Positions 8,863-35,102 of a DNA stretch of 49,826 nucleotides are shown here, one piece after another (position 1 is the stretch's first letter; each line of letters opens with the position of its first letter). The notes below the pieces were generated by a model. It was not told the origin of the DNA. It worked only from the letters and a program-made list of their open reading frames with translations, and did no database searches. The stretch is from positions 1-49,826 of the forward strand of contig JAYUSX010000439.1 of the NCBI GenBank assembly GCA_043755475.1, written 5' to 3'. Both the position numbers and the translations under genes were made by a program. This DNA comes from Actinomycetota bacterium (GTDB taxonomy: Bacteria > Actinomycetota > Acidimicrobiia > Acidimicrobiales > Ilumatobacteraceae).

Positions 8863-8976
8863 CGTGACATCCGGTCCACGGCCCGACGATCTCGACGGGC
8901 GTGAGACACTGAGTCGGGCGTGAGACACACGGTCGAGGGTGGCCGGCGTGTCCGACTACTCTGCCGTCACGTCAGG
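8858..8976. promoter_or_regulatory. 11-bp inverted repeat (CCTGACGTGAC / GTCACGTCAGG) enclosing two 14-bp direct repeats (CGGGCGTGAGACAC at 8896-8909 and 8915-8928), upstream of the MFS-cNMP gene
   Basis: Read directly from the sequence. Sits in the 132-nt gap upstream of ATG 8995. Function not established. Confidence 0.35.
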
Positions 8977-8994
8977 GGAAGGTCGAGCGGTGCG

Positions 8995-10635
8995 ATGAAG
9001 GTGGGCAGCGGACAGCTCGCGCTGATCGGACGGGTTGCACGGGCCAAGGAGTTGCGGCGGCTCAACCTCGCATTCGTCGCTTTTGCGATCAGCGAGCACG
9101 CCAGCTGGCTCGCCGTGCTGTTCTATGCGTTGGAGCGAGGCGGTGCCGAAGAGGTCGGCCTCGTCGCCGTCGTCCAGCTCGCGCCGGCCGTGTTGCTGAC
9201 CCCCTTCTCGTCGTTGGCAGGCGACCGCTTCTCTCCACGCACTGCTCTTGCGGCCGGCTACGGCGCACAGTGCGTCGCGATGACCGCGACCGCTGCTGCG
9301 ATGTGGGCGGATGCGCCGGTTCTCGCGTATGTGTGCGCCGCAGGCGCTGCGACGGCCGTGAGCTTCACCCGGCCGGTGATGGGGGCTCTGCTGCCCACGG
9401 TCGCCCGCACGCCGCGCGACCTGGTGGCGGTGAACGTGGTGTCGGGGTTGATCGAGCAGGTGGGGGTGTTCGTCGGCCCGGTGATCGCGGGCGTGACGAT
9501 CGCCGTCTCGTCGCCCGCGGGAGCTTTTGTGATGACGGCAGGGCTCACCGGGGTGGCGTGCATCGCGACGTTGGGGGTGCCTGCCGGCGCCGACGAGCGC
9601 ATCCGCAGCATCCATGCACGCGGCGCCCTCGGGGCCGCGTTCGCCGGATTCACCGTCCTCCGCCACACGCCGCACCTACGTATCCTGCTGATCTTCATCG
9701 CCTGCGCCGGGCTCGCAAAGGGAGTCGGTGACTGGGCGTTCGTGGTCCTCGCCGAGGATCGGCTCGGGTCCGGCGGCGGTGGCGCCGGTCTGCTGGCGGG
9801 CGCAGCCGGCGTCGGTGGATTCGCAGGCGCCATCGCGACAGCGCGGCTCGGGCAGGCCGGCAACGTCATCGGTCAGTTCTCGGTCGCGTCGGCGTGCATC
9901 GTGGTGGCCATCGCCGTCACATCGGTCGTCGACCACCTCGTGCCCGCCCTGCTCGCAATGGGAGCGCTGGGCGCCGGCGGGACCGTCTTGGTGATCACCA
10001 GCGTGGTGTGCGTCCAACGCCAGACCCCGTCGGACGTGCTGGCCAGGGTCTCCGGGATCGTGGAGGGTGCGCTGATGGCCTCGATGGCAGCAGGGTCGTT
10101 CGTGCTCTCCCTCCTGGTCCGCCGAGCGTCGCTCGGCGCGGCGTTCGTGATCGTCGCTGCCGCGATCGCGCTCGTGCTGCTGATCGCCGTCGGGTTGCTG
10201 CGTCGCAACAGCGACGAGTTGGCCCCGGTCGACGAGGCGATCGTCGCCCGGCTGCTCGACGATCCGGTCTTCTCGCCACTGTCGGCACCCACGATCGAGC
10301 GGCTGGCCCGTCACGCCGAACGACTTTCGATCGGCACCGGCGAGTCGATCATCCGGCAGGGCGATCCGGGCGACCGCTACTACGTGGTGCTCGGGGGCAC
10401 GGTCGCGATCGACCAGGACGGCCAGCGGATTCGAGAGCTGTCAGCGGGAGACTCGTTCGGGGAGATCGCCCTCATGCGCGACGTGCCGCGCACGGCAACC
10501 GCAACGGCGACGTCAGTGGTCGAGCTCATCGCCGTGGAGCGGGACGACTTCCTCGCCGCCGTCACCGGCCACTCGCGGGCGCTGGCGACCGCCCATGGCG
10601 TCGTCGACGGCTTCCTCGACCCGCACGATCGTTGA
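8995..10635 (+). CDS. MFS transporter fused to a C-terminal cyclic-nucleotide-binding (CAP-effector) domain
   Basis: About 12 hydrophobic segments. The C-terminus IIRQGDPGDRYYVVLGGTV...LSAGDSFGEIALMRDVPRTATA is a canonical cNMP-binding signature. Start set at ATG 8995. Confidence 0.85.
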   Translation: MKVGSGQLALIGRVARAKELRRLNLAFVAFAISEHASWLAVLFYALERGGAEEVGLVAVVQLAPAVLLTPFSSLAGDRFSPRTALAAGYGAQCVAMTATAAAMWADAPVLAYVCAAGAATAVSFTRPVMGALLPTVARTPRDLVAVNVVSGLIEQVGVFVGPVIAGVTIAVSSPAGAFVMTAGLTGVACIATLGVPAGADERIRSIHARGALGAAFAGFTVLRHTPHLRILLIFIACAGLAKGVGDWAFVVLAEDRLGSGGGGAGLLAGAAGVGGFAGAIATARLGQAGNVIGQFSVASACIVVAIAVTSVVDHLVPALLAMGALGAGGTVLVITSVVCVQRQTPSDVLARVSGIVEGALMASMAAGSFVLSLLVRRASLGAAFVIVAAAIALVLLIAVGLLRRNSDELAPVDEAIVARLLDDPVFSPLSAPTIERLARHAERLSIGTGESIIRQGDPGDRYYVVLGGTVAIDQDGQRIRELSAGDSFGEIALMRDVPRTATATATSVVELIAVERDDFLAAVTGHSRALATAHGVVDGFLDPHDR

Positions 10636-10662
10636 TCTCGCGAGGCGCTCCGCCCTCGAGCT

Positions 10663-11409
10663 GTGGGCCGTAGAGTCACCTTCGTGACCCGTCCCGTGAT
10701 CGCACTCCCCGGTCGCCGCAAGCTCGGCAGACAGATCGCCGACTTCCCCGACAGTCTCGCTGCGATCGATGTCGACCTCTACTTCGCCGACTATGCGCGC
10801 GGCGTGATGCACGCGGGAGGTCTCGCCGTGCACCTACCGTTCGATGCGAACCCAGCGGAGTACATGGGCGTGTTCGACGGCATCCTGCTGCCGGGTGGCG
10901 CCGACGTCGATCCCGTTCACTACGGCGCAGACCCCCTGGACGGTCACCCGATCGAGCCCGAGCGCGACGAACTCGAGCTCGGTCTCCTCGCCTTGGCCGA
11001 AGCCGAGAGTCTTCCGGTCGCGGGTATCTGTCGGGGGCTGCAGCTGTTGAACGTGCACGGTGGTGGCACCCTGCATCAGGACGTGCCCCACCACTCGCAC
11101 TTCGACAAGTCGCCCAACTCGCCGGTCCATCATGTCGAGTTCGAACTCGATTCAGCATGCGCCCGCCTCTACGGCAGGCCGATCGAGGTGAACTCGTTGC
11201 ACCATCAGACGATCGATCGCGTCGCCGCCGGCTTCCGCATCACCGGCACTTCCGAGGACGGGACCATCGAAGCGATCGAGGCGATCGATCGGCCATGGAT
11301 CGCCGTGCAGTGGCACCCCGAGATGATGGACGACGGCCATGACGACCCGCTGTTCCGCTGGCTGGTCGAGCAGGCCGCCGCTCGCCGCAGGCAACGCGTC
11401 AGGATCTGA
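10663..11409 (+). CDS. Gamma-glutamyl-gamma-aminobutyrate hydrolase family protein (peptidase C26, class I glutamine amidotransferase-like; PuuD-like)
   Basis: Motifs LPGGADVDP, GICRGLQLLNV (nucleophile Cys), NSLHHQ, QWHPE. The start may instead be GTG 10684. Confidence 0.85.
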   Translation: MGRRVTFVTRPVIALPGRRKLGRQIADFPDSLAAIDVDLYFADYARGVMHAGGLAVHLPFDANPAEYMGVFDGILLPGGADVDPVHYGADPLDGHPIEPERDELELGLLALAEAESLPVAGICRGLQLLNVHGGGTLHQDVPHHSHFDKSPNSPVHHVEFELDSACARLYGRPIEVNSLHHQTIDRVAAGFRITGTSEDGTIEAIEAIDRPWIAVQWHPEMMDDGHDDPLFRWLVEQAAARRRQRVRI

Positions 11410-11442
11410 CCGTTCGGTCACCGGTGGTGGAGCAAGGATCTC

Positions 11443-12663
11443 TCAGCGATCGGGGCGAGGTCCGGTGACGTAGCCGTCCCGGGTTTGCGGTAGGCGCATG
11501 TCGAGGATGCGGGAAGCCACGACCGTCCGCAGGATCTGAGCCGTTCCTCCACCGATGGTGAACATCCGCACGTCGCGGTACATCCGCTCGAGCGGATTGC
11601 GGCGCGAATACCCGGCGGCGCCGAACACCTGGAGCGCGTCGCTCACGACGCCGATCGACGACTCGGCGGTGAAGATTTTCGCCTGTGCGGCCATCGTCGC
11701 GTCGGGGAAGGGGGAACCTTCACCTCGCGAACATGCAGCTCGATACGTGAGGCTGCGAGCAGCTTCCAGCTTGGTGCTCATGTCGGCGAGCATCCATTGC
11801 ACACCCTGGAACTCGGCGATCGGCCGGTCGAACTGCTGACGTTCCTTCGCGTACTCGATCGCCAGCTCGTAGGCGCCGGTGGCGATGCCGAGAGCCACCG
11901 TGCCGGCGCCCACTCGTTGGGAGTTGTACGCGTTCATGAGATCGGCGAAGCCGCGCGCGAAACCGGAGGGGGGCATCAGGACCATGTCTGCTGCGATCTC
12001 CGTATCGTCGAAGAACAGCTCCATCTCCGGGATGCCGCGCAGACCCAACGTCGGTTCCCGGCGGCCGAGTCGAAGGCCTGGCGTCTCGTCGCGGATGGCG
12101 AGGAACCCGCCGATGCCGAGCTCGATGCCGTCCTCGTCGAACACCCGGGCGAACACGAGGTGCAGCTTTGACACGCCACCGCCGGTGATCCAGTGCTTGG
12201 ACCCGTTGATCACGTATCGGTCACCGCGCCGATCGGCGCGGGTCGTCATCTGTGACGCGGCCGAGCCGGCACCCGGTTCGGTGATGCAGATCGCGGGCTT
12301 GTCGCCAGCGAGCACCATCTCGGCAGCCAGCTGCCTCTGGCGATCGGTTCCGTACTCCATCACGGCAGAGATCGCTCCCATGTTCGCCTCGACCGCGATC
12401 CGCCCAGTCACACCGCAGACGGCGGCCATCTGCTCCACCACCAGCACGGCATCGAACAAGCTGTGGCCGGGGCCACCGAGCTCGACAGGAACGGTCATCC
12501 CGGTGAAGCAGGCATCGCGCAGTGCGGCGACGTTGTCCCACGGGTACTCCTCGCTCCGGTCGACCTCGGCCGCTCGGGGAGCGATCACCGTGCGGGCCAG
12601 CTCTCGAGCGCGGGCCTGCAACGCTCGCTGATCGTCGGTGAGATCCCACGGGTTCGGGCTCAT
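11443..12663 (-). CDS. Acyl-CoA dehydrogenase
   Basis: Start at ATG 12663 (MSPNPWDLTDDQ...) with GGAGGA 8 nt upstream. ACAD-type sequence throughout (GGGTAQILR near the C-terminus). ATGA overlap with the upstream gene. Confidence 0.9.
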   Translation of the reverse strand: MSPNPWDLTDDQRALQARARELARTVIAPRAAEVDRSEEYPWDNVAALRDACFTGMTVPVELGGPGHSLFDAVLVVEQMAAVCGVTGRIAVEANMGAISAVMEYGTDRQRQLAAEMVLAGDKPAICITEPGAGSAASQMTTRADRRGDRYVINGSKHWITGGGVSKLHLVFARVFDEDGIELGIGGFLAIRDETPGLRLGRREPTLGLRGIPEMELFFDDTEIAADMVLMPPSGFARGFADLMNAYNSQRVGAGTVALGIATGAYELAIEYAKERQQFDRPIAEFQGVQWMLADMSTKLEAARSLTYRAACSRGEGSPFPDATMAAQAKIFTAESSIGVVSDALQVFGAAGYSRRNPLERMYRDVRMFTIGGGTAQILRTVVASRILDMRLPQTRDGYVTGPRPDR

Positions 12664-13841
12664 GATCGGTTCCTCCGTCTGCTCCAACGCTCGATCACCT
12701 GTGCGGCGTCGGATTCGCCCAGTGTCGCACCCAGTCGGTCGATCCGACCGGGCGTCTCCATGAGCCGCGGCACCGTTCCGGGAACGACGAGCGACCCGAG
12801 AGCGCCGAAGCGCTCGTCGATGATCCGCAACACCGACTCGCGGGCCATCACCTGTGGGTGGCGCAGGTAGTCGGCCGCCGTGTGCACCGCACCGGCCGGC
12901 ACACCGGCGCGCTCGCAGGTCGCGACGACGTCGTCGCCCGCCCGGTCGGCCACCCACGATGCGACGGCGGCGTTCACCGCAGCTCGATTCGCGATGCGAG
13001 CCTCATTGGTGACGAAGCGCGCATCGTCGAGCAACTCGGGCCGTCCCATCGCCTCGGCGAGCCGGTCGAACATCCTGTCGTTCGTACAGGCGATCGTCAC
13101 CCAACGGCCGTCGGCCGATTCGAAGTTGTTGTGCGGCACCGACCGGTGCGTCTCGCCCGCCATCCGCTCACGGCCCACACCGGTCGCGGCGAAGACCGTC
13201 ATGTACTCGTCGAGGAAGCGGGCAACGCCGTCGTAGAGCGCGATGTCGACGAGTTGTCCCCGGCCGGACGACCGACGCGATTCGAGGGCGAGCATCACGC
13301 CGAAGGCTCCGTACAACCCGGCCACGTAGTCGGCCAGCGCAGAGGAGCCCGACAGACCTGGCGCACGGTCCGGTTCACCGGTGAGGTGGGTCATGCCGGC
13401 GAAGGCCTCGGCGATCCTGGCAACACCTGCGGTCGCCGCCATCGGCCCAGTTCGGCCGAAACCGCTGACGCTCAGCTGCACCAGACCCGGGTTGGCAGCG
13501 CGCAGCGATTCGAAGCCGAGACCCCAGGCATCCATGGTGCCGGTGCGGTAGTTCTCGATCAAGACGTCGGCACCGGCGACCAGCTCGCGGAACTGTGCGG
13601 CCCCGTCGACGCTGCGCAGGTCGATCTCGACGCTGGTCTTGTTGCGGGTGTCGCTCCACCACCAGAAGGTGTCGCCCTCGGGCCCGGCGGTGCCGAGCCG
13701 ACGCATCGGATCGCCGACGCCCGGTTGCTCGACCTTCACCACCTCGGCGCCGAACTCGCCGAGGATCGAGGCGGCAAACGGGCCGGCGAGGATCGTGGCC
13801 GCATCGACGACGCGCAGCCCGTCGAGAGGGCGCGCGGTCAT
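12660..13841 (-). CDS. Family III CoA-transferase (CaiB/BaiF / alpha-methylacyl-CoA racemase family)
   Basis: MTARPLDGLRVVDAATILAGPFAASILGEFGAEVVKVEQPG is a typical N-terminus. ATGA overlaps at both ends. Confidence 0.9.
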   Translation of the reverse strand: MTARPLDGLRVVDAATILAGPFAASILGEFGAEVVKVEQPGVGDPMRRLGTAGPEGDTFWWWSDTRNKTSVEIDLRSVDGAAQFRELVAGADVLIENYRTGTMDAWGLGFESLRAANPGLVQLSVSGFGRTGPMAATAGVARIAEAFAGMTHLTGEPDRAPGLSGSSALADYVAGLYGAFGVMLALESRRSSGRGQLVDIALYDGVARFLDEYMTVFAATGVGRERMAGETHRSVPHNNFESADGRWVTIACTNDRMFDRLAEAMGRPELLDDARFVTNEARIANRAAVNAAVASWVADRAGDDVVATCERAGVPAGAVHTAADYLRHPQVMARESVLRIIDERFGALGSLVVPGTVPRLMETPGRIDRLGATLGESDAAQVIERWSRRRNRS

Positions 13842-15088
13842 GGGCGACGTGCCCGCACCGGGAGCGACTCGATGCCGTTCACGAAGTTCGACTTCACGTG
13901 ACGTGGCTCGCCGATCACCTCGATCGTCGTGTCGCTCCGGACGATCTCGTCGATCAGGATCGCGAGCTCGAGCCGGGCCAGCGAGGCGCCCAGGCAGAAG
14001 TGCACGCCGCCGCCGCCGAATGCCACGTGTGCCGGTGTGCGGGGACGCTGGACATCGAACCGCTGCGGATCGGCGAACACCGCTTCGTCGAAATTGGCTG
14101 AGGCGTACCACATCACCACCTTCTCGCCGGCGGTGATCGGCGTGCCGGAGAGAACGGTGTCGACGGTGGCCGTCCGACGGAAGTACAAGATCGGCGACGA
14201 GAAGCGGATGACCTCGTCGACTGCCTGGTCGAGCAGTGCCGGATTGCGGCGGACCATCGCGAACTGCTCGGGGTGCTCGGTCAGGTGCACCGCGAGATGG
14301 GCCATCGACGATCTTGTCGTCTCGTTGCCGGCGAAGATCATCAGCTGGAAGAAGCGGGCGAAGTCGGTCTCGCTCAGCTGCTCGCCATCGATCTCCACCG
14401 TTGCCAGGAGCGAGAGCAGGTCGTCGGCCGGCGCGTCCAATCGCTGACGGCGGGCGCGACACGCGTAGTCGTAGACGCCGAAGGCAGCAGGGCTGTTGAA
14501 CGGCAGTTCCCTGAGAGGCGTCGTGTTGCCGTACGCGCTGGGGTCGAGTTCTTCGCCCGAGGTGCCGGCAACGAGATGGTCGCTCATCTCGATCATCAGG
14601 TCGTGATCGCCGGCGGGCACGCCCAGGATGTCGCAGATGACACCGATGGGGATCGGCGCGGCGACGTCGGTCACCCAGTCACCCTCTCCCACGGCGACGA
14701 GCCGGTCGAGCAGATCGCGCACCCGCACGCGGATCGCTGCCTCGTGTGCCTGCACGTGCCTCGGCGTGAAGGCGGCGCTGACGAGTCGCCGCAGACGGGT
14801 GTGCACCGGCGGGTCGAGATCGATCATCGACGCACGCACGCGGCGCACGTCTTCGTCCACGTCGTAGATCTGGATGTGCCCCAGCTCGGACGAGTACGTG
14901 GTCGCGTCGCGCGAGACCGCGACGAGGTCGGCCATCCGACCGACCGACCAGAACCCCTTCGTCGTCGAGGTGTCCGGCGTCCACACGAGCCCGGGCTGGG
15001 CGCGCATGGTCGCGAACACGTCGTGCGGAATGCCACGGTCGTACAGCGCAGGATCTGCGAGATCGGCCGGTGCCAAGGGACGGGACAT
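13838..15088 (-). CDS. Cytochrome P450 (CYP124/125/142-like omega-hydroxylase type)
   Basis: Heme loop FGGGGVHFCLGASLARLE, I-helix AGNETTRS, C-terminal SNFVNG. Paralogous to the P450 at 20066..21310. Confidence 0.9.
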   Translation of the reverse strand: MSRPLAPADLADPALYDRGIPHDVFATMRAQPGLVWTPDTSTTKGFWSVGRMADLVAVSRDATTYSSELGHIQIYDVDEDVRRVRASMIDLDPPVHTRLRRLVSAAFTPRHVQAHEAAIRVRVRDLLDRLVAVGEGDWVTDVAAPIPIGVICDILGVPAGDHDLMIEMSDHLVAGTSGEELDPSAYGNTTPLRELPFNSPAAFGVYDYACRARRQRLDAPADDLLSLLATVEIDGEQLSETDFARFFQLMIFAGNETTRSSMAHLAVHLTEHPEQFAMVRRNPALLDQAVDEVIRFSSPILYFRRTATVDTVLSGTPITAGEKVVMWYASANFDEAVFADPQRFDVQRPRTPAHVAFGGGGVHFCLGASLARLELAILIDEIVRSDTTIEVIGEPRHVKSNFVNGIESLPVRARRP

Positions 15089-16323
15089 CAGGTCCGGGCC
15101 TCGACCACATCGCGCGTGCGGGCGACGATGTCGCGCTGCACCACGCTGCCGCCGATCCGGTGCAGCGTGGGAAGAGCCGACGCCAACAGCTGCGTCGCCC
15201 GGTCGTCGTCGAGCTCACCCGCGGCGCGGATGCCCGCCACCAGCGGCACCACGGTGTCGCGGAACGTGATGTCGTTGTAGGTCACTCCCGTCGCATGCGC
15301 GTCGACCACGCCGGTCCAGAACGCCGAAGCTCCGGGGTGGTCGGCCACTGCTGCGAACGCGAACGCGGCATGCATGTCGAGGAACGCACACGTGTGCCGT
15401 TGCCGGTTGGCCGACCAGGAATCGGCGAGCGCGGCCCACCGTTCCATGGTGTCGACCACTCCCCCGCTGGCGAGGTCGATGCGCCACAGCAACGAGGTCG
15501 AGTCGGAGAGCCCGAACGCGGTGGTGGAGTGCAGGTGATCGTCGAAGACCGCCAGCGCCCCGTCGAGATCGCCGTGTTCGAGCAGACGCAGCGCGAGGTG
15601 CCACCACACGTGGTTGCTCAGGAGCGTCTGCTGCTGCCATCGGTCGGTGGACGGCACCAGGAGCTCGATCGCGTCGGCGTGTCGCCCTGCACTCTCGAAG
15701 ACGTGGGCGAGCGCATGTCGCGCCCACAGGTCGTCCGGATCGGCCTCGAGCGCTGCCGAGCCGTGCTCGACGGCCTCGTCATAGCGGCCCACTTCCTCGA
15801 GCGCGAACGCGAACATGCCGGCGGCCAGCCCATGCTCGCGGGAACCGACCGGAAAGGCAGCCGCAGCACGTTCGGCCGAGGGCAGGCGCATCGTGTCGTC
15901 ACCGATGTGCAGGCACACATCGTGCAGGAAGCGGTAGGCGGGGAAGTCGTCAGGATGGTCGAGCGTGATCCCGCGCCACGTGGCCACCGCCTCGAGGAAC
16001 TCGCCTCGGTACAGCTGGATCGCTGCCTCCGCGTGACGACGCTCGCGCTCGTCGGTGCGGGGCGAACGCTCATCCAGTCGCAACCGGTCGAGCGCGACCG
16101 CCGGATCTGATGGGTCGACGCCTCCGAGCACGCGGTACGTGAGGGTGAAGACGGGCCCCATCACGAAGGCCTCGTCGAGCGCGTTCACGCTGTCGAGCGT
16201 GGCGACCGGATCGCCGCGGAAGTGAGCCAGCTGATCGAACGCCGACCACCAGGCATGACGCGAGGCATCGTCGCGAGCGCCCACGCTCGGGCCGAACACG
16301 CCGTTCACCTGATCGTCGGCCAC
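15088..16323 (-). CDS. Tetratricopeptide repeat protein (TTC38-like family)
   Basis: TPR-like helical sequence. TGATG 1-nt overlap with the downstream P450. Start proposed at GTG 16323, which lies 7 nt downstream of a TATCAT -10-like hexamer and would be leaderless. The longer ORF to 17193 is antisense to P450-2. Confidence 0.65.
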   Translation of the reverse strand: MADDQVNGVFGPSVGARDDASRHAWWSAFDQLAHFRGDPVATLDSVNALDEAFVMGPVFTLTYRVLGGVDPSDPAVALDRLRLDERSPRTDERERRHAEAAIQLYRGEFLEAVATWRGITLDHPDDFPAYRFLHDVCLHIGDDTMRLPSAERAAAAFPVGSREHGLAAGMFAFALEEVGRYDEAVEHGSAALEADPDDLWARHALAHVFESAGRHADAIELLVPSTDRWQQQTLLSNHVWWHLALRLLEHGDLDGALAVFDDHLHSTTAFGLSDSTSLLWRIDLASGGVVDTMERWAALADSWSANRQRHTCAFLDMHAAFAFAAVADHPGASAFWTGVVDAHATGVTYNDITFRDTVVPLVAGIRAAGELDDDRATQLLASALPTLHRIGGSVVQRDIVARTRDVVEART

Positions 16324-16326
16324 GGC

Positions 16327-16376
16327 TTGGATGATATTTGATACTTGATAGCGTCCGAACCGTCGTGGGGACGACG
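16327..16376. promoter_or_regulatory. AT-rich divergent promoter island between the TTC38 operon and the P450/ADH/GS operon
   Basis: TTGGATGATATTTGATACTTGATAGCGT stands out in a GC-rich background. Direct TTGATA repeats at 16338-16343 and 16345-16350. Minus-strand TATCAT at 16331-16336. Possible plus-strand TTGGAT-16nt-TAGCGT. Hairpin CGTCGTggggACGACG at 16361-16376. Confidence 0.4.
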
Positions 16377-16410
16377 CCGCGCCGGCACCACGGGCAGGAA
16401 AGGGGGAGCG

Positions 16411-17568
16411 ATGGATGACATGACGAAGCGCCCACGGTACGACTTCGACTTCCACGGAGCCGCCCTCGACACGATCTTCGACGACTACGAGGCGATGCAT
16501 CGCGAGTGCCCCGTGTCGTGGAGCGGCCACTACGGCGGTTTCTGGACGCTCACCCGCTACCACGACGTGCACGCCGCGGAGCACGACTGGGACACGTTCT
16601 CCGTCGCCCCGTCGATGATCCTGCCGTCGTTCGGCACCGATCGCCCCCTCATCCCGCTCGACATCGACCCACCGGCGCTCACTCCGTATCGCCAGATCCT
16701 CCTGCCGTTCTTCACACCCCAGAAGATGGACGACCTCTTGCCGCGCACCCACGCGCTGGCACGAGAGCTCCTCGACGACGTGCAGGACCAAGAGGTCTTC
16801 GACGCAGCCCCGTACTGTCGAATGCTCCCGGCGATGGTCTTCGGCGAGTACTGCGGGTTCCCGATGCACGATGCCGCTCAGTTCGACGTGTGGGTCGATG
16901 CCATCGTGTTCGCTCGCTCCGACGACGAGTCCGTTGCCCGCCAGGCGGCGGTCGAGGTCTACGACTACTTCCGCGATCTGATCGCTCACCGACGTCGCAG
17001 TCCCGGAGCCGATGTGATCTCGTCGCTGATCGCCGCCGATCACGCGGGCCGTCCACTGAGCGACGACGAGATGCTCGACATCTGCTACTTGTTGTTCGTC
17101 GCCGGGCTCGAGACCACCGCGGGAACCATCCGGGCCGGCCTGTGGTACCTCGGCCAGCATCCCGACGAGCTCGCTCGCCTTGCTGCCGACCACAGCCGGA
17201 TCCCTGCGGCGACCGAGGAGTTCCTGCGCGCGCTCTCACCCGTGCAGGCGATGGCACGCACCTTGAAGCAGGACACCGTCATCGACGGCATCGCGATGAG
17301 GGCGGGCGAGCGGGTCGTGCTCGCATTCGGTGCCGCCAACCGCGACCCTGAGCGATTCGAATGCCCGTACGAGGTACAGCTCGATCGGGCATCGAACCCA
17401 CACACCGCCTTCGGAGCCGGTGCTCACCGATGCCTCGGGAGCAACCTCGCCCGCCGAGAGGTGAACGTGGCGCTGGAGGAGATGATCGTGCGCCATCCCA
17501 GGTTCGAACTGGCCGAGGCGGCTCCATGGCATGGCATCGGACCACTGCTGCTGCGACCACTCCCCTGA
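16411..17568 (+). CDS. Cytochrome P450
   Basis: ATG 16411 preceded by AAAGGGGGAG. Heme loop FGAGAHRCLGSNLARRE; I-helix VAGLETTAG. Confidence 0.9.
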   Translation: MDDMTKRPRYDFDFHGAALDTIFDDYEAMHRECPVSWSGHYGGFWTLTRYHDVHAAEHDWDTFSVAPSMILPSFGTDRPLIPLDIDPPALTPYRQILLPFFTPQKMDDLLPRTHALARELLDDVQDQEVFDAAPYCRMLPAMVFGEYCGFPMHDAAQFDVWVDAIVFARSDDESVARQAAVEVYDYFRDLIAHRRRSPGADVISSLIAADHAGRPLSDDEMLDICYLLFVAGLETTAGTIRAGLWYLGQHPDELARLAADHSRIPAATEEFLRALSPVQAMARTLKQDTVIDGIAMRAGERVVLAFGAANRDPERFECPYEVQLDRASNPHTAFGAGAHRCLGSNLARREVNVALEEMIVRHPRFELAEAAPWHGIGPLLLRPLP

Positions 17569-17571
17569 GAC

Positions 17572-17615
17572 GACCGACCATTCACCTGACCGACCATTCA
17601 CCTGACCGACCTACC
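17572..17615 (+). repeat. Tandem 16-nt repeat GACCGACCATTCACCT x2 plus partial third copy in the P450-ADH intergenic leader
   Basis: Read directly from the sequence. G-poor on the sense strand. Confidence 0.8.
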
Positions 17616-17632
17616 GAGAGAAGCAACACACG

Positions 17633-18592
17633 ATGAAAGCCATCGAACTGCAGACGTTCAACAGTCCCCTCGTCGCGGTCGAGCGGCCCATCCCCACGAT
17701 CGCTGCCGGCGAAGAGCTGATCGACGTGACGGCGTGCGGTGTCTGTCACTCCGACATCCACGTGGTCGACGGACTGTTCGGAAGCCCGCTGCCGCTGATC
17801 CCCGGCCATGAGGTCACCGGCGTGCACCATCAGCTCGGACCGGTGATGGTGTACGCCCCGTGGGGGTGCCGCAACTGCTGGATCTGCGAGAGCGGCCACG
17901 AGATGATCTGCCCCGACGGCGCCGAGGCCGGACTCTTCCGAGACGGTGGCTATGCCGAGCAGATGCGGGTCACCCATCGTGAGTACCTGCAGCCGATCGG
18001 CGACCTCGATCCGGTCGCGTCGGCGCCGCTCGCGTGCGGAGGGCTCACCGCATTCCGGGCCACCAAGCACGCCCTCGAGACGCTGCGACGCCGGGGCTCA
18101 GCCGCACGCGCGTTGGTGATCGGCGCCGGTGGCCTCGGCCAGTTCGGCATCCAGTACCTGCGGATGATGAGCGACGCCGAGGTGTGGGTGGCCGACCCTG
18201 CACCTGCAAAGCAGCAACGGGCGCTCGAACTCGGCGCCAGCGGCGCCGTGACCGCCGACGAGCTCGATGGCAGGTTCGACGCGATCATCGACTTCGTCGG
18301 CGCCCAGCCCACGCTCGAGGCTGCCGTGCAGCGAGTGAACCGTCGTGGCATCGTGATCGCCGTCGGCCTGTACGGCGGTCGGGTGCCGTTCGGTGTGGGC
18401 GCGGTGCCGCACGAGGCCCAGTTCATGTCGAGCATCTGGGGTACCGTCGCCGAACTCGGCGAGCTGATCGCCTTCGCCCATCGTCACCCCATCCAATACA
18501 CCGTGGAGTCGGTCGCGCTCCAGGACGCCGAGCTGGCCCACCAGCGCCTGCGTGCCGGCGACGTCGCCGGCCGACTGGTGCTCGTTCCCTGA
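17633..18592 (+). CDS. Zinc-dependent alcohol dehydrogenase (MDR family)
   Basis: GVCHSDIH, PLIPGHEVTG, and GAGGLGQFG Rossmann motif. Confidence 0.9.
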   Translation: MKAIELQTFNSPLVAVERPIPTIAAGEELIDVTACGVCHSDIHVVDGLFGSPLPLIPGHEVTGVHHQLGPVMVYAPWGCRNCWICESGHEMICPDGAEAGLFRDGGYAEQMRVTHREYLQPIGDLDPVASAPLACGGLTAFRATKHALETLRRRGSAARALVIGAGGLGQFGIQYLRMMSDAEVWVADPAPAKQQRALELGASGAVTADELDGRFDAIIDFVGAQPTLEAAVQRVNRRGIVIAVGLYGGRVPFGVGAVPHEAQFMSSIWGTVAELGELIAFAHRHPIQYTVESVALQDAELAHQRLRAGDVAGRLVLVP

Positions 18593-18657
18593 GGTGTCGG
18601 CATCCGATACCCCGACGACCGCCCCTCCCCCACCATCGACTGAACCAAGGAGCCGGG

Positions 18658-20001
18658 ATGCCCTCCCCACGCCTCGACGAGATCGCCGCCCTCATCGCCC
18701 ACGAAGGCGTGCACACGGTCGAGCTCGCCACCATCGACACGTACGGCCACCTTCGCGGCAAGCGGGTGCCGGCCGGCCGCTTCATCCGCACCGTCGCCGA
18801 GCACGGCGCGCACATCGCCGACGCAATCTACGTCATGGACGTGCAGTGTGAGATCGTCGACAGCCCGCTGATCAACATGGGGGCGGGGTTCCTCGACATG
18901 CACCTCGAACCCGACCTGTCGACCTTCCGGCTGCTGAAGCACCGGCCCGGATACGCAACGGTGATGTCGAACAGCATCGACCACGAGCACAAGCCTCATC
19001 CGCTCGACCCGCGCAACGTGTTGCAGGCCCAGGTCGACCGAGTGAACGCCCTCGGCTACGACCCGATCGCGGCGACCGAGCTCGAGTGCTACGTCTGCAA
19101 CGACGACTGGACACCCGTCCAGTCAAACGTGCAGTACTCCTCGCTGATCGACAACTTCCCCCTCGAGCGGTGCGTCGCCGACATGCGCTCCGCGCTGCTC
19201 GACCTCGACATCCCTTTGGAGTCGTCGAACCCCGAGTACGGGCCGGGCCAGCTCGAGATCAACTTCGGCCCGGCCGACCCGATGCGCACCGCCGACAACA
19301 CCATCTTGTTCAAGGCCACGGTGAAAGAGGTGGCTCGCGCCCACGGTTTTCGGGCGACGTTCATGCCCAAGCCGTACGCGGGTCAGTCCGGCAATGGCAT
19401 GCACGTGCACACGAGCCTGTCGAAGGACGGTCGGAACGTGTTCGACGGCGGTGATGGCCACCTCTTGAACGACGTGTTCCGCCACTGGGTGGGTGGCCTG
19501 ATCCACCATGCCCGATCCATCAGCCTGATGGGCATTCCGATGGGCAACGGATACAAGCGGGTGCGGCCCTACACGTTCTGCCCCACTCACGCTCACTGGG
19601 GCGGCGACAACCGCAGTGTGCTGTGCCGCTGCACGGTGGGCCAGGGCCAGGCGAATCGGGTCGAGTTCCGTGGTGCCGGCGCGGACGCCAACCCGTACCT
19701 CATCGTCGCTGCGCTCCTCGCCGCAGGTGCCGACGGCCTCGAGCGCCAACTCGACCCCGGCCCGCAAGCCCTGGGCGACCAGTACGACGATCCGGGGGAT
19801 CACCCGCTGCTGCCGGCGACCTTCGCCGAGGGCGTCAGCGCGTTCGCCGGCAGCTCGCTGGCAGCGTCGTTGGGCGAGGAGTTCGGCGTGAACTTCCTCG
19901 CCCTCACCACCAACGAGCTCGCACGGTACGAGGCGAGCGCCGGCGGCGACATCGACGACGTGACCGAGTGGGAGTTCGCCCGCTACGTCGAGTTCACCTG
20001 A
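18658..20001 (+). CDS. Glutamine synthetase family protein (gamma-glutamyl-amine ligase type, PuuA/GlnA3-4/IpuC-like)
   Basis: ATG 18658 preceded by AAGGAG. Catalytic-domain signature NPEYGPGQLEINF...FMPKPYAGQSGNGMHVHTSL. Confidence 0.88.
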   Translation: MPSPRLDEIAALIAHEGVHTVELATIDTYGHLRGKRVPAGRFIRTVAEHGAHIADAIYVMDVQCEIVDSPLINMGAGFLDMHLEPDLSTFRLLKHRPGYATVMSNSIDHEHKPHPLDPRNVLQAQVDRVNALGYDPIAATELECYVCNDDWTPVQSNVQYSSLIDNFPLERCVADMRSALLDLDIPLESSNPEYGPGQLEINFGPADPMRTADNTILFKATVKEVARAHGFRATFMPKPYAGQSGNGMHVHTSLSKDGRNVFDGGDGHLLNDVFRHWVGGLIHHARSISLMGIPMGNGYKRVRPYTFCPTHAHWGGDNRSVLCRCTVGQGQANRVEFRGAGADANPYLIVAALLAAGADGLERQLDPGPQALGDQYDDPGDHPLLPATFAEGVSAFAGSSLAASLGEEFGVNFLALTTNELARYEASAGGDIDDVTEWEFARYVEFT

Positions 20002-20065
20002 ACCCACCCACCGCGAGACACCCGCACCACCCGCAACCCGCAACTCCTGGAACGAGCACCTGCCC

Positions 20066-21310
20066 ATGGTCGACATCGCCAGCCCCGAGCTCTACGAGCG
20101 CAGCGGCATCCCGCACGACGAGTTCGCCCGGCTGCGCCGGGAAGAACCCGTGGTGTGGCACGACTGGGAGTGCTCGCGCGGCGGGTTCTGGGCGGTCACC
20201 ACTCGAGATGACGTCACGACGGTCACCCGCGACTGGCACACCTACACCTCGGCCGAGTTCACCAACCTGTTCGAGCTGAGCGCCGCAGCAAAGGTCGCCC
20301 GCAAGTCGCTGATCGACACCGACGGCGCCGAGCACACTCGCCTCCGCCGACTGGTCACGCCGCCGTTCACCATGCGTCGCACGGGCGACTACGACGCCGT
20401 TGCCCGCGGCATCACCAATGGTCTGCTCGATGCGATGCTCGAGAGCGGTTCCGGCGGCAGTGGCGTCGATGTGGTGAAGATGTTGTCGGAGCCCTTGCCC
20501 ATCCAAGTGATCGTCAGCATCCTGGGTGTCCCCGCGGCAGACGCCGACTTCATGGTCGAACTCTCGAACCAACTCGTCGAAGGCACCTCGCACCGCGAGG
20601 TCGACCCCCATGCATACGGCAACACCACCCCACTCGAACTCCTGCCGTTCAACAGCCCGGCATCGCATGCGCTGTTCGAGTACGGGCGCGGCCTGCATGC
20701 CGAGCGCTCCACGTGCCCAGCCGACGATCTGGTCGGCAAGTTGGTCACCGCCGAGATCGACGGCGATCGGCTGACCGATCAGGAGTTCTGCAACTTCTTC
20801 CAGTTGCTGGTCTTCGCCGGCAACGAGACCACCCGCACTGCGATCTCGCAGGGCATCCATCACCTCATGATGTACCCCGATCAGCAGGAGCGACTGCATG
20901 CCGATCCGTCGCTCATCCCGACGGCGGTGGAGGAGATCATCCGGTGTGGCGTGCCCGTGCTGCACATGCGCCGCACCGCGACCACCGATGCCACACTGCG
21001 CGACAAGCAGGTGCGTGAGGGCGACTGGGTCGTGCTCTGGTACGCATCGTCGAACTTCGACGAACAGATCTGGCCGGATTCACGCTCGTTCGACGTCGGC
21101 CGCGCACCGAAGCCCGATCACACGTCGTTCGGCGCCTTCGGGCCACACCACTGCCTCGGTGCACCGCTCGCCCGGTTGGAATTGCGCTTGATGCTGGAGG
21201 AGATCGTGCGCCGTGGGGTTCGGTTCGCGCCGGCGGGTGAACCGGTGCGAGTGGCGAGCAACTTCGTCAACGGCATGCTCCACCTACCGGCCACGGTCAC
21301 CGCTGCCTGA
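20066..21310 (+). CDS. Cytochrome P450 (CYP124/125/142-like), paralog of 13838..15088
   Basis: Heme loop FGAFGPHHCLGAPLARLE, AGNETTRT, SNFVNG. Collinear similarity to P450-1 across the full length. Confidence 0.9.
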   Translation: MVDIASPELYERSGIPHDEFARLRREEPVVWHDWECSRGGFWAVTTRDDVTTVTRDWHTYTSAEFTNLFELSAAAKVARKSLIDTDGAEHTRLRRLVTPPFTMRRTGDYDAVARGITNGLLDAMLESGSGGSGVDVVKMLSEPLPIQVIVSILGVPAADADFMVELSNQLVEGTSHREVDPHAYGNTTPLELLPFNSPASHALFEYGRGLHAERSTCPADDLVGKLVTAEIDGDRLTDQEFCNFFQLLVFAGNETTRTAISQGIHHLMMYPDQQERLHADPSLIPTAVEEIIRCGVPVLHMRRTATTDATLRDKQVREGDWVVLWYASSNFDEQIWPDSRSFDVGRAPKPDHTSFGAFGPHHCLGAPLARLELRLMLEEIVRRGVRFAPAGEPVRVASNFVNGMLHLPATVTAA

Positions 21311-21352
21311 CCCGCCGCACGGACGAGTCCGACGAATCACAGCCCGTCGCGC

Positions 21353-21376
21353 GGAGGATGCGCCGACGGATCCTCC
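21353..21376 (+). terminator. Hairpin GGAGGAT-10nt-ATCCTCC downstream of the P450 operon
   Basis: 7-bp stem about 43 nt after the stop at 21310. No clear U-tract. Confidence 0.3.
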
Positions 21377-21614
21377 TTCAGAGGGATGACGCCGTTGGTT
21401 GTCGATGCGACAGTCGACACATGAAGGTCCCTTCGACATCCCTCGAACGCTCGTCGGCCTCGGCATCGATGATCGGCTCGACCGAGCAGCGCCGGTGTCC
21501 GACGAGATCTGGGCAGCGACCGTGTGAGCTCGGGTCCCGTTGGCATGGGTCGAAGGGCCCAAGAAGCTCGACTCGCGGCATCTCCTGGTGCGATCGGTGC
21601 CTACGATCGGTTGC

Positions 21615-22514
21615 ATGAGTCAAAGTCAGACGAGTCAGATGTTGGAGCGTGTGCGTACCGGAGCCGGCTTCATCGCCGCACTCGACCAGAGCGGCGGCAG
21701 CACCCCGAAGGCACTCCGTCTCTACGGCGTGGAGGAGAGCGAGTACTCCACCGAAGAAGAGATGTTCGACCTGATGCACGCGATGCGCTCGCGCATCGTC
21801 ACCAGCCCTGCCTTCACCGGTGAGCGCGTGCTCGGAGCGATCCTGTTCGAGATGACGATGGACCGTCGGATCGAGGGGATGGGGTCGGCCGAGTACCTGT
21901 GGAAGGTCAAGCAGGTCGTGCCGTTCCTGAAGGTCGACAAGGGCCTCAGCGACGAGAGCGACGGTGTGCAGTTGATGAAGCCCATGCCGCAGCTCGACGC
22001 GCTGTGCGAGCGGGCGGTGGCGGCCGGCGTGTTCGGCACGAAGATGCGCTCGGTGATCCTGCATGCCGATGCTTCCGGCATCGACGCGATCGCGGCTCAG
22101 CAATTCGAGGTGGGCAAGCAGATCCTCGGCCACGGGCTCGTCCCGATCATCGAGCCCGAGGTCGACATCAACAGCACCACCAAGGCCGAGGCAGAAGCAC
22201 TGCTCCAGCAGTCGATCCTCGCTCAGCTCGACGCGCTGGACGCCGATCAGCACGTGATGCTGAAGCTCACCCTGCCCACGGTCGACGACTTCTACCAACC
22301 GCTCGCGCGGCACTCTAAGGTGCTGCGGGTGGTGGCGCTGTCCGGCGGCTACAGCCGTGATGATGCGAATGCGAAGCTGGCCCGCAACCACGGCATCATC
22401 GCCAGCTTCTCGCGGGCACTCACCGAGGGCCTCACCGCCCAGATGAGCGATGCAGAGTTCGATGCCGCCCTCGACGCAGCCATCGCCGGCATCTTCGCCG
22501 CATCGACCACCTGA
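21615..22514 (+). CDS. Class I fructose-bisphosphate aldolase
   Basis: MSQSQTSQMLERVRTGAGFIAALDQSGGSTPKALRLYG... and PFLKVDKGL (Schiff-base Lys region) are typical of the bacterial class I FBA family. Confidence 0.88.
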   Translation: MSQSQTSQMLERVRTGAGFIAALDQSGGSTPKALRLYGVEESEYSTEEEMFDLMHAMRSRIVTSPAFTGERVLGAILFEMTMDRRIEGMGSAEYLWKVKQVVPFLKVDKGLSDESDGVQLMKPMPQLDALCERAVAAGVFGTKMRSVILHADASGIDAIAAQQFEVGKQILGHGLVPIIEPEVDINSTTKAEAEALLQQSILAQLDALDADQHVMLKLTLPTVDDFYQPLARHSKVLRVVALSGGYSRDDANAKLARNHGIIASFSRALTEGLTAQMSDAEFDAALDAAIAGIFAASTT

Positions 22515-22523
22515 CCCCAACCC

Positions 22524-22629
22524 CGCGATGAGAGATGAGTGCCGGTGGCACCCCCATCTCTCATCGAGTCCGGGCGGTGCCCAAGAGCGATGAGAGAAGG
22601 GGGCGGCAGCGACACTCATCTCTCATCGC
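22524..22629. repeat. Two tandem/nested copies of the same REP-like palindrome family seen at 3522-3566
   Basis: Arms at 22525-22541, 22555-22566, 22587-22597 and 22613-22629 are all mutually complementary. The outer pair is a perfect 17 bp. Lies between the convergent FBA and GGDEF genes. Confidence 0.8.
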
Positions 22630-22643
22630 CGGGGTTGGTGTGC

Positions 22644-34995: not shown

Positions 34996-35102
34996 GGCGA
35001 CCGAGGGACGCCGACGAGGAACTCACGGCGGGACAACGAACTCATGACGTGCCAACCCTTCGGCGCCTTGACTGAAAATTCAGTCAGTGGCACGATACCC
35101 CC

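Follow-up and report, generated by a model that had tools for sequence, protein, structure and literature searches.

The window analyzed here is a stretch of 49,826 nucleotides (contig JAYUSX010000439.1 of assembly GCA_043755475.1, G+C content 66-70%) from an uncultured member of the Ilumatobacteraceae, in the class Acidimicrobiia. Between 8.9 and 22.5 kb it carries a cluster of genes for a ligase that resembles glutamine synthetase (GS), three P450s, a hydrolase of the C26 peptidase family, a zinc-dependent alcohol dehydrogenase (Zn-ADH, or ADH), a family III CoA-transferase, a protein with the acyl-CoA dehydrogenase fold, and a TPR-repeat protein. A previous reading of these genes, made from the sequence alone (the sequence-only reading), took them for a glutamylation route by which a longer-chain or branched amine, or an amino-lipid, would be degraded. 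We keep the first half of that idea and revise the second. On balance we lean towards one pathway made of two modules, an Ipu-type route of glutamylation and P450 oxidation and a desulfination of 3-sulfinopropionate, which together would form a catabolic island of freshwater and marine uncultured Acidimicrobiia.

Gene content and organization

The gene map of 8.9-22.5 kb was drawn from Pfam scans and a gene caller based on codon-position log-odds with interval scheduling. Thresholds on the G+C of third codon positions (GC3) and greedy picking of open reading frames (ORFs) were unsuited to this DNA, in that an antisense ORF across one of the P450 genes (P450-B below) displaced it. Every gene named in the sequence-only reading was found by Pfam at, or very near, the place assigned to it, whereas the gene for a 411-aa TPR protein (15088-16323) and the division of the cluster into three transcription units had been missed. 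The map is as follows.

8920-10635, + strand: MFS transporter fused to a C-terminal cyclic-nucleotide-binding domain, MFS-cNMP (Pfam MFS_1 and cNMP_binding)
10663-11409, + strand: peptidase C26 / class-I glutamine-amidotransferase (GATase)-type γ-glutamyl-amide hydrolase, PuuD/IpuF-like (Pfam Peptidase_C26, 181.8 bits)
11443-12663, - strand: predicted 3-sulfinopropionyl-CoA desulfinase, four-domain acyl-CoA dehydrogenase fold (NCBIfam NF042439)
12660-13841, - strand: predicted family III CoA-transferase, probably acting on 3-sulfinopropionate (Pfam CoA_transf_3, 361 bits)
13838-15088, - strand: P450-A, CYP124/125-like (Pfam p450)
15088-16323, - strand: TPR-repeat protein, 411 aa (TPR Pfam matches)
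16337-16355, + strand: AT-rich element TTTGATACTTGATAGCGTC in the divergent intergenic region between the TPR gene and P450-B, kept in relatives
16411-17568, + strand: P450-B, homologue of the Ipu-type γ-glutamyl-alkylamide hydroxylase (Pfam p450; similarity to the ipu-cluster P450)
17633-18592, + strand: Zn-ADH (Pfam ADH_N and ADH_zinc_N)
18658-20001, + strand: predicted GS-like glutamate-amine ligase, γ-glutamyl organic amide synthetase type (Pfam Gln-synt_C, 280 bits)
20066-21310, + strand: P450-C, CYP124/125-like paralogue (Pfam p450)
21540-22514, + strand: class I fructose-bisphosphate aldolase (NCBIfam equivalog, 488 bits against a cutoff of 392)

The cluster comprises three transcription units, not one. 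In the first (+ strand), MFS-cNMP ends 27 bp 5' of the C26 gene. The second (- strand) runs from the TPR gene through P450-A and the CoA-transferase to the desulfinase, with stop and start codons that overlap as TGATG, ATGA and ATGA (the last between CoA-transferase and desulfinase), the mark of translational coupling. The third (+ strand) consists of P450-B, ADH, GS and P450-C, with spacers of 64-65 bp. For P450-B we favored the ATG at 16411 as start over the TTG at 16345. The spacer between P450-B and ADH (17568-17632, + strand) holds a direct tandem repeat of CCTGACCGACCATTCA, in two copies and then a partial third.

A scan of 8700-22700 for consensus promoters and terminators gave no signal exceeding that of shuffled sequence. 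The 19-nt element TTTGATAYTTGRTAGCGTC at 16337-16355 is present in a single copy in the window, where chance would give 0 matches, and exactly one copy lies 5' of P450-B in all seven of the closest relatives (loci L001, L002, L006 and L008-L011; L numbers denote the loci of relatives throughout). It is kept even where the gene upstream differs and the remainder of the spacer has diverged, and it is probably the promoter of the P450-B operon (with TGATAGCGT as extended -10), its operator, or both.

Fusion of an MFS transporter to a cyclic-nucleotide-binding domain is an unusual architecture, kept only in the closest relatives (L006, L008). The protein is a possible importer, and its membership in the cluster is uncertain; in its place, most relatives have a Liv-type ABC transporter. 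The aldolase that follows P450-C was considered as a member of the pathway and set aside as housekeeping, given its equivalog score.

As the sequence-only reading had said, the window encodes no ferredoxin or ferredoxin reductase, by tblastn with the ferredoxins of relatives and with the Paenarthrobacter ferredoxin and reductase or by motif scan (best E value 0.007 over 21 aa). Redox partners for the P450s must be encoded elsewhere in the genome. RNA data yielded one possible run, with 5% of the GS words; its contigs are short and mostly partial, and two near-identical pieces fall in ADH and GS.

The GS-like ligase

We aligned the product of 18658-20001 to E. coli GlnA and PuuA and to IpuC of Paenarthrobacter aurescens TC1, IpuC(TC1). 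All of the metal, ATP and glutamate ligands are kept (E129, E131, E212, E220, H269, H271, R321, R339, R344, E357 and R359 in the E. coli/Salmonella GS numbering). The ammonium-site residues of GS are changed: Phe stands in place of the flap Glu327 and Ser in place of Asn264, and the Tyr179 loop is missing. The flap position is occupied by Tyr in PuuA and by Trp in IpuC(TC1), both of which also lack the Tyr179 loop, and the Phe of the window ligase (F307) is invariant across 22 homologues. Loss of the flap Glu is a hallmark of γ-glutamyl organic amide synthetases (PMC11335346).

The ligase falls under every NCBIfam cutoff, whether for γ-glutamylputrescine synthetase (234 bits of 650 required), type III GS (218 of 470) or GlnA (TIGR00653, 213.4 of 429). 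Because the ammonium-site signature is lost, the flap Phe is invariant and all of these cutoffs are missed, we judge the gene to encode an amine-glutamylating ligase and not a true glutamine synthetase, a prediction that we regard as well supported. It is 32.5% identical to IpuC(TC1), 28% to PuuA and 29% to E. coli GlnA. Its PDB scores are similar for true GS and for GS-like proteins (165-191 bits), and the plasmid collection contains no GS-like protein more than 35.5% identical to it. Within a comparison set of E. coli GlnA, PuuA and IpuC(TC1), the ligase appears as a deep branch of its own.

A 630-aa metagenomic protein, P0118, fuses a Zn-ADH domain to a GS-like ligase that is 57% identical to that of the window. 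This natural fusion supports a direct functional link between ADH and ligase.

P450-B and the C26 hydrolase

Over 375 aa, P450-B shares 51% identity with AAur_pTC10066, the P450 of the P. aurescens TC1 ipu cluster. Its ten best matches in the plasmid collection lie at 47-51% identity, followed by a gap to 37% or less; they come from Paenarthrobacter, Arthrobacter, Pseudarthrobacter, Microbacterium, Aminobacter and Agrobacterium, mostly Micrococcaceae soil isolates and several of them atrazine degraders. By comparison, P450-A and P450-C are 28-31% identical to P450-B and 27-32% identical to AAur_pTC10066. The ipu cluster of plasmid pTC1 has the order SDR, GATase, P450, ferredoxin, reductase, ipuC. 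The Ipu route begins with a GS-like ligase that forms a γ-glutamyl alkylamide; hydroxylation by a P450 comes next, then removal of the glutamate by a hydrolase of class-I amidotransferase type, and then the action of an ADH and an aldehyde dehydrogenase (ALDH) (PMC6776027; also PMC1713258). The closest relatives of P450-B with a characterized context would be enzymes acting on a three-carbon γ-glutamyl amide.

The C26 hydrolase shares 36% identity with the GATase adjoining the ipu P450 on pTC1 and 32% with E. coli PuuD. Its catalytic Cys (ICRGLQ) is retained, as is the His-x-Glu within WHPE. With 82.3 bits against the NCBIfam PuuD equivalog NF008471, far under the cutoff of 266, the protein is not a PuuD in the strict sense. 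In L001 and L002 its gene immediately precedes P450-B. Ligase, P450 and amidotransferase-type hydrolase are encoded together not only in the window and in L001/L002 but also in the 32 of 85 GS-anchored loci that have a class-I GATase-type hydrolase.

These results favor the ipu/puu-like core of the sequence-only reading, in which the ligase masks an amine, a P450 oxidizes it and C26 removes the glutamate. The ligase has lost the signature of a true GS, P450-B is close to the ipu P450, the genes are co-conserved, and P450s accompany the ligase and the hydrolase in relatives, so that none of the findings overturns the core idea.

The desulfinase and CoA-transferase pair

The product of 11443-12663 had been called an acyl-CoA dehydrogenase, a name that we withdraw. 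Against NCBIfam NF042439 it scores 654.6 bits (cutoff 600, E value 3.6e-197), with residues 16-395 on positions 1-379 of a 379-position profile, and it aligns end to end with the Advenella enzyme in PDB 5AF7/5AHS at 522 bits, the next PDB match reaching 234 bits. Arg84 and Gln246 of 5AF7, which reportedly have roles in the Advenella enzyme (2015 structure study), correspond to Arg88 and Gln249. The position of Glu376 in medium-chain acyl-CoA dehydrogenase is a Gly here (FTIGGGTAQI), and neither of the glutamates at the base positions of acyl-CoA dehydrogenases is present. The desulfinase family is without the catalytic Glu and performs no dehydrogenation (PMC9293079); the desulfinase splits 3-sulfinopropionyl-CoA into propionyl-CoA and sulfite (PMC6370202). 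Close homologues carry the source name '3-sulfinopropanoyl-CoA desulfinase', and there are thousands of metagenomic homologues. By profile, structure match and active-site residues, we predict that this protein is a 3-sulfinopropionyl-CoA desulfinase (EC 3.13.1.4), not an acyl-CoA dehydrogenase.

The family III enzyme encoded at 12660-13841 had been described as a CoA-transferase/racemase, of which the first part stands and the second does not. Its PDB scores are 193-239 bits for CoA-transferases and about 112 bits for racemases, and the catalytic Asp169 of formyl-CoA transferase (Frc) is kept in the motif ALADYVAG, features by which we predict a CoA-transferase and not a racemase. It reaches no NCBIfam equivalog, the best being succinate-glutarate CoA-transferase (263 bits, cutoff 750). 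Adjacency of the two genes is likewise seen for act-acdA in Variovorax paradoxus (PMC6370202).

We found no gene for enoyl-CoA hydratase, hydroxyacyl-CoA dehydrogenase or thiolase in the window cluster, nor any among the recurrent neighbor families of relatives. Because the cluster has no β-oxidation genes, a long-chain amine or amino-lipid is an unlikely substrate, and the β-oxidation-type set on which that earlier suggestion depended falls away. Because the supposed fat-oxidation pair looks like a sulfur-removing pair, the substrate is probably sulfur-containing. At the level of genes, we consider this predicted sulfur link to be well supported.

P450-A, P450-C and the TPR protein

The two remaining P450s agree with their earlier description as paralogues of CYP124/125 type with an AGNETT I-helix: they are 46% identical to one another, and both have the I-helix motif FAGNETTR and the C-terminus SNFVNG. 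Their best scores against solved structures of CYP124, CYP125, CYP142 and CYP268 are 250-359 bits, the best PDB matches of P450-A being a CYP125 ancestor (359 bits), CYP268A2 and CYP124. P450s that adjoin the TPR or desulfinase gene in relatives have a median identity of 65% to P450-A and 45% to P450-C. P450-C lies immediately 3' of GS, as it does in relatives, where the start of the P450 gene falls within the end of GS (overlap of 4 bp in L086-L088, 29 bp in L094).

The TPR protein, a constant companion of P450-A and the desulfinase, has about 360 homologues at E<=1e-10; the few with a taxon label belong to Acidimicrobiia or Actinomycetota, and none has a functional name. Its AF2 model is all-α with a pLDDT of 92.6. 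A PDB sequence search, NCBIfam, and Foldseek on the model gave generic TPR matches only (Foldseek TM<=0.5). In an alignment of 34 sequences, His97, 134, 139, 203, 207, 238, 242 and 318, Glu210 and several Asp and Trp residues are invariant, and the motif HALAHVYE is included. A role as regulator was considered and is unsupported, as the protein has no DNA-binding domain. With so unusually dense a set of conserved residues, the protein resembles an enzyme or a cofactor-binding partner more than it does a scaffold, and the idea that it could be a metalloenzyme comes solely from the invariant His residues. A TPR-fold protein with an invariant histidine cluster is a candidate new enzyme or P450 partner.

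Conservation in relatives

A scan of 185,579 species-representative genomes found 412 loci with relatives of the ligase. The best 80 of the 412 are all from metagenome-assembled genomes (MAGs) labelled Acidimicrobiia, Actinomycetota or uncultured bacterium, and GS-like homologues were found in Acidimicrobiia MAGs of Ilumatobacteraceae, Acidimicrobiaceae and Candidatus Poriferisodalis. The top relative locus, L006, is 98% identical with identical gene order, and DNA of the window is also present in sediment and freshwater metagenomes. The source is thus a freshwater or sediment member of the Acidimicrobiia, similar to Ilumatobacteraceae/Acidimicrobiaceae, and no actinomycete of the mycobacterium type. 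To count neighbors we clustered the called genes of 85 usable loci fetched with the ligase. Because many of these loci are cut by contig ends, the counts are lower bounds.

P450 of the A/C family: 68 of 85 loci
Zn-ADH: 42 of 85, immediately upstream of GS in nearly all
Liv-type ABC transporter: 41 of 85
class-I GATase-type hydrolase, of either of two families: 32 of 85
P450-B: 26 of 85
desulfinase: 20 of 85
TPR protein: 19 of 85
ordinary acyl-CoA dehydrogenase, upstream of ADH-GS and about 30% identical to the desulfinase: 18 of 85
ALDH: 14 of 85
ferredoxin (65-93 aa): 11 of 85

Ferredoxin genes are also present in L094 and L096, none of these ferredoxin-bearing loci shows a reductase, and many loci have GntR or MarR regulators. 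About 90 Acidimicrobiia loci keep GS, Zn-ADH, P450s and C26/GATase hydrolases together, and the reading frames often overlap. In dozens of independent loci the GS homologue is accompanied by the same families, so the grouping is more than chance.

The genes for desulfinase, TPR protein and P450-A travel together and occur beside the ligase in at least four arrangements, down to 54% ligase identity. As one example, L003 has TPR, P450-A, desulfinase, P450-B, ADH and GS in one tightly packed run. In L094 and in L096, about 13 genes whose reading frames overlap follow one another in a single run, in the order ABC transporter, GntR, acyl-CoA dehydrogenase, ADH, GS, P450, (aminotransferase), ferredoxin, (ALDH), P450-A, TPR, desulfinase, CoA-transferase. 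Both sets of genes are tightly packed on a single strand in L078, and L097 and L098 have P450s, TPR (L098), desulfinase, GATase and C26 in a row. In L001 and L002, whose GS is 85% identical to that of the window, a single-strand run contains C26, P450-B, ADH, GS and P450-C.

When loci were fetched with the desulfinase instead, four of the six contained γ-glutamyl enzymes and P450s. In L092 the desulfinase gene lies between P450s and beside genes for a SulP/STAS sulfate-transporter-family protein, a metallo-β-lactamase (MBL)-rhodanese and a TauE-family protein, and this locus therefore counts as one independent sulfur context. In L093 a desulfinase orthologue (80% identical) lies beside genes for the α and β subunits of nitrile hydratase and an amidase. 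Several kinds of three-carbon organosulfur compound, nitriles, amides and amines included, may converge on the desulfinase as their shared last step.

Two further patterns were seen among the relatives. A very stable other version of the cluster is found in L005 and L038-L059 (sponge symbionts, namely Candidatus Poriferisodalis and relatives), with the order SDR, α/β-hydrolase, GATase, P450, P450; transcribed divergently from these are GS, another GS-like gene (30% identical) and a Liv-type ABC transporter. ADH, TPR and desulfinase are all missing from this version, and its substrate is probably a different one. Luciferase-like (LLM) oxidoreductases recur near the clusters or the desulfinase (L064, L070, L080, L082 and also L015; L086, L092, L093, L096 and L097), and one such family exceeds the cutoff of the F420-dependent TIGR03619 (189 bits against 167). 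Because LLM enzymes include sulfone and sulfonate monooxygenases, these proteins may be further sulfur-oxidizing feeders.

Proposed pathway and alternatives

From the family and signature assignments, the gene order and the co-conservation described above, we propose a scheme in which the sequence of reactions, the substrate, and what P450-A, P450-C and the TPR protein do are our interpretation. An amine would be imported, possibly by the MFS-cNMP protein and in relatives by ABC or APC systems. In the first module (C26, P450-B, Zn-ADH, ligase and P450-C), the ligase would couple a primary amine to the γ-carboxyl group of glutamate at the expense of ATP, and P450-B, probably together with P450-C, would hydroxylate the γ-glutamyl amide. 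The alcohol would then be oxidized by ADH and an ALDH, encoded elsewhere in this genome and inside the cluster in relatives, and the C26 hydrolase would free the glutamate. In the second module (TPR, P450-A, CoA-transferase and desulfinase), 3-sulfinopropionate would be activated to its CoA ester, which the desulfinase would split into propionyl-CoA and sulfite.

Among sulfinic analogues, 3-sulfinopropionate corresponds to succinate and homohypotaurine to γ-aminobutyrate (GABA). In relatives, an enzyme of GABA-aminotransferase type (465 bits against the model for 4-aminobutyrate transaminase, under its cutoff) and an ALDH are encoded between GS-P450 and P450-A-TPR-desulfinase. This pair would fit a conversion of homohypotaurine through 3-sulfinopropanal to 3-sulfinopropionate, the sulfinic parallel of GABA to succinate. 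As a speculation, the sulfinate could originate from successive P450 S-oxygenations of a methyl thioether, after which hydroxylation of the sulfone methyl would yield formaldehyde and sulfinate. The most likely substrate would be a small amine whose three-carbon skeleton carries sulfur, with 3-methylthiopropylamine, homocysteamine, compounds of the homohypotaurine type, or naturally γ-glutamylated forms of these as candidates. A catabolic, inducible character is suggested by the Liv-type ABC importers (about 41 loci) and the GntR/MarR regulators.

The ALDH at 47106-48476, which the sequence-only reading had joined to an amine theme, was considered for the aldehyde step and rejected: it resembles succinate-semialdehyde dehydrogenase at a score under the cutoff, lies 26 kb away, and is 27-33% identical to the in-cluster ALDHs of relatives.

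Because TPR, P450-A, desulfinase and CoA-transferase share single operons with GS or C26 in relatives, we think that one pathway is somewhat likely. A number of points weigh against it. There is no known reaction by which P450-A and the TPR protein would make 3-sulfinopropionate, and the window cluster is without ALDH, aminotransferase, ferredoxin or regulator. The desulfinase module is found in only about a quarter of the GS-anchored loci; the close relatives L001 and L002 have the first module without the second, and L018, with a GS that is 76% identical, has C26-ADH-GS-aldolase without any P450. Because these three loci lack the sulfur module, the first module can work alone, and L018 suggests an amino-alcohol core to which P450s have been added so that alkyl substrates can enter it. 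The window CoA-transferase shares only about 32% identity with its counterpart next to the desulfinase in distant relatives, and a search of the window and of the GS-anchored loci gave no other sulfur-handling gene (TauE family, SulP, MBL-rhodanese, persulfide dioxygenase or thiol dioxygenase). In addition, the function of the pTC1 P450 was assigned by homology to the ipu genes of Pseudomonas strain KIE171, not by assay in TC1, and the sole RNA match is fragmentary.

An appreciable minority of our confidence accordingly goes to two independent pathways that happen to be neighbors, an Ipu/GlnA4-type module for small sulfur-free alkylamines or amino-alcohols and a separate organosulfur module for acids derived from 3-mercaptopropionate or dimethylsulfoniopropionate (DMSP). 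Each half does occur without the other, the first in L001, L002 and L018 and the desulfinase in L092 and L093, where there is no GS or C26. Moreover, the halves lie on opposite strands in the window, where they could be separately regulated, and the element upstream of P450-B goes with that operon whether or not the second module is present. What speaks for a single pathway instead is that both modules form single-strand runs with overlapping stop and start codons in L003, L094 and L096 and are tightly packed in L078, that C26 and GATase come immediately after desulfinase and P450 in L097 and L098, and that the association outlasts several rearrangements and a divergence of GS to 54% identity. 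Rather unlikely, and offered tentatively, is an undescribed Acidimicrobiia pathway for a natural sulfur amine in which the CYP125-like P450 and the His-rich TPR protein would be a new S-oxygenating or C-S-cleaving system, yielding the sulfinate in place of the cupin thiol dioxygenase of Proteobacteria. The amine would be processed as its γ-glutamyl amide, and its carbon would reach central metabolism as propionyl-CoA while sulfite is set free. The substrate may be 3-methylthiopropylamine, another three-carbon thio-, sulfinyl- or sulfonyl-propylamine that belongs with the metabolism of methionine or DMSP, or a conjugate that is already γ-glutamylated.

We give small credence to a route for cyclic or secondary amines of the piperidine, pyrrolidine or morpholine kind, possibly as thia-analogues. 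Here the ring nitrogen would be glutamylated and a P450 would hydroxylate next to it, opening the ring to a γ-glutamyl-ω-amino aldehyde; ADH and ALDH would give the γ-glutamyl-ω-amino acid, the PuuD-like C26 would free the acid, and aminotransferase and ALDH would lead to a CoA-activated dicarboxylate analogue, all of these being steps that we hold to be improbable. The PuuD-like character of C26, the GABA-aminotransferase-type enzyme and ALDH between the two halves in relatives, and the sulfinic analogies to succinate and GABA would suit such a route, and GS-like genes are reportedly found beside P450s in mycobacterial morpholine/piperidine systems and in the Pseudomonas pip operon. Literature searches for γ-glutamyl routes of piperidine or morpholine gave nothing usable. 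Among the plasmid and ipu-cluster P450s compared, the nearest relatives of P450-B are of the Ipu type that acts on the amide of a primary amine, and there is no obvious natural cyclic thia-amine to serve as substrate.

The original proposal, in which a long-chain or methyl-branched amine or amino-lipid is glutamylated, omega-hydroxylated by CYP124/125-type P450s, oxidized to the acid, racemized or activated and β-oxidized, now seems highly improbable to us. P450-A and P450-C do resemble the CYP124/125/268 terminal hydroxylases of methyl-branched lipids and sterols, and 18 relatives have an ordinary acyl-CoA dehydrogenase upstream of ADH-GS. But the homologue in the window lacks both catalytic glutamates and exceeds the desulfinase cutoff, the family III enzyme is transferase-like and not racemase-like, and the hydratase, hydroxyacyl-CoA dehydrogenase and thiolase are absent from the window cluster and do not recur in relatives; the three-carbon amide of the P450-B relatives and transporters of amino-acid-type ABC or APC families, not lipid transporters, point the same way. 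Finally, we can hardly credit a biosynthetic cluster, for instance one that tailors a natural product with the non-ribosomal peptide synthetase (NRPS) at the start of the window, or a second ammonium-assimilating GS. Multiple P450s are common in biosynthetic clusters and an NRPS module does lie at 26-3520, but it is 7 kb away and is not a conserved neighbor, and relatives couple the genes to ABC importers, GntR/MarR regulators, aminotransferase and ALDH. As for a second GS, the ammonium signature residues are lost.

Comparison with known systems

The pathway of two modules that we favor resembles several described systems in part. With the Ipu systems (ipuABCDEFGHI of Pseudomonas sp. KIE171; pTC1 and pTC2 of P. 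aurescens TC1) it shares the logic of ligase, P450 and amidotransferase-type hydrolase, and also the placing of hydrolase before P450 (GATase-P450-ferredoxin-ferredoxin reductase-IpuC on pTC1, C26-P450-B-ADH-GS-P450-C in L001). Unlike them, the window cluster has no ferredoxin and ferredoxin reductase, and its ligase is too distant to be called IpuC; it adds two CYP124/125-like P450s, the TPR protein and the CoA-transferase/desulfinase pair, which are in no described ipu cluster, and it is chromosomal in an uncultured member of the Acidimicrobiia, whereas ipu is carried on a plasmid of a xenobiotic degrader. The sulfur module argues for a substrate other than isopropylamine.

The second module is like the 3-sulfinopropionate branch of the catabolism of 3,3'-dithiodipropionate and 3,3'-thiodipropionate (Acd of Advenella mimigardefordensis, Act-AcdA of Variovorax paradoxus) in that a CoA-transferase gene adjoins the desulfinase, the equivalents of Arg84 and Gln246 of Acd are kept, the catalytic Glu is absent, and the expected products are propionyl-CoA and sulfite. 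The likeness of the window CoA-transferase to Act is one of gene adjacency. In the proteobacterial branch, however, 3-sulfinopropionate comes from 3-mercaptopropionate through a cupin thiol dioxygenase (Mdo); clusters of the window type have no Mdo-like gene, and the partners there are P450, TPR protein and γ-glutamyl enzymes.

A GS-like ligase with a C26 hydrolase is also found in the Puu pathway (E. coli PuuA/PuuD) and with actinobacterial GlnA2, GlnA3 and GlnA4 (polyamines, ethanolamine). Also shared with these routes is the action of ADH and ALDH on a γ-glutamylated intermediate (PMC6529630, PMC8998196). The L018 variant (C26-ADH-GS, no P450) looks like the GlnA4 amino-alcohol scheme. Unlike Puu, the window proteins are only 28% identical to PuuA and 32% to PuuD, with equivalog scores far under cutoff (234/650 and 82/266), and oxidation here would be by P450s where Puu uses a flavin oxidase. 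The mycobacterial CYP124, CYP125, CYP142 and CYP268 are like P450-A and P450-C as best structure matches and in the FAGNETTR motif, but the window has no sterol or lipid catabolic genes around these P450s, their partners being GS, C26 and desulfinase, and their substrate is probably small and polar.

Taken together, the cluster is Ipu/Puu-like in its first half and Advenella/Variovorax-like in its last two steps. It is not a strict member of either group, because its ligase and hydrolase miss the PuuA and PuuD cutoffs, the ligase is only 32.5% identical to IpuC, and there is neither a redox pair nor a thiol dioxygenase. We found no description of the combination, or of the Acidimicrobiia cluster, in the literature searched. 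P450-coupled glutamylation of amines for catabolism is known mainly from a few xenobiotic degraders, and here it would be chromosomal and widely conserved in an uncultured lineage common in lakes, streams, sediments and sponges. If the proposed pathway is true, it would be an unrecognized link of organic nitrogen and organic sulfur cycling, with an amine in and sulfite and propionyl-CoA out, and would assign a role in nature to a desulfinase whose study has so far centered on synthetic polythioester precursors.

Other features of the window

Two divergent agmatine-deiminase-type genes lie at 33847-36140. The sequence-only reading had related them to amine catabolism; they are not conserved neighbors of the cluster. 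The paralogues of this region (33847-36769) are under the aguA cutoff (231 and 313 bits against 382), and a gene for a TetR regulator overlaps the end of the second. The NRPS module at 26-3520 (+ strand) has a partial condensation domain and adenylation, carrier and thioesterase domains and is cut by the start of the window. A 175-aa ORF of the PhyH family (33245-33772, - strand) matches only the C-terminal half of its profile (96-213 of 213) and may be a truncated gene or have a mis-called start. At 36972-41386 (+ strand), a gyrB-like/gyrA-like pair scores well under the gyrase/topoisomerase IV cutoffs (gyrB 510 against 882, gyrA 567 against 877) and may encode an extra type IIA topoisomerase; in L001 and L002 the pair is syntenic with DUF808 and β-lactamase-family genes.

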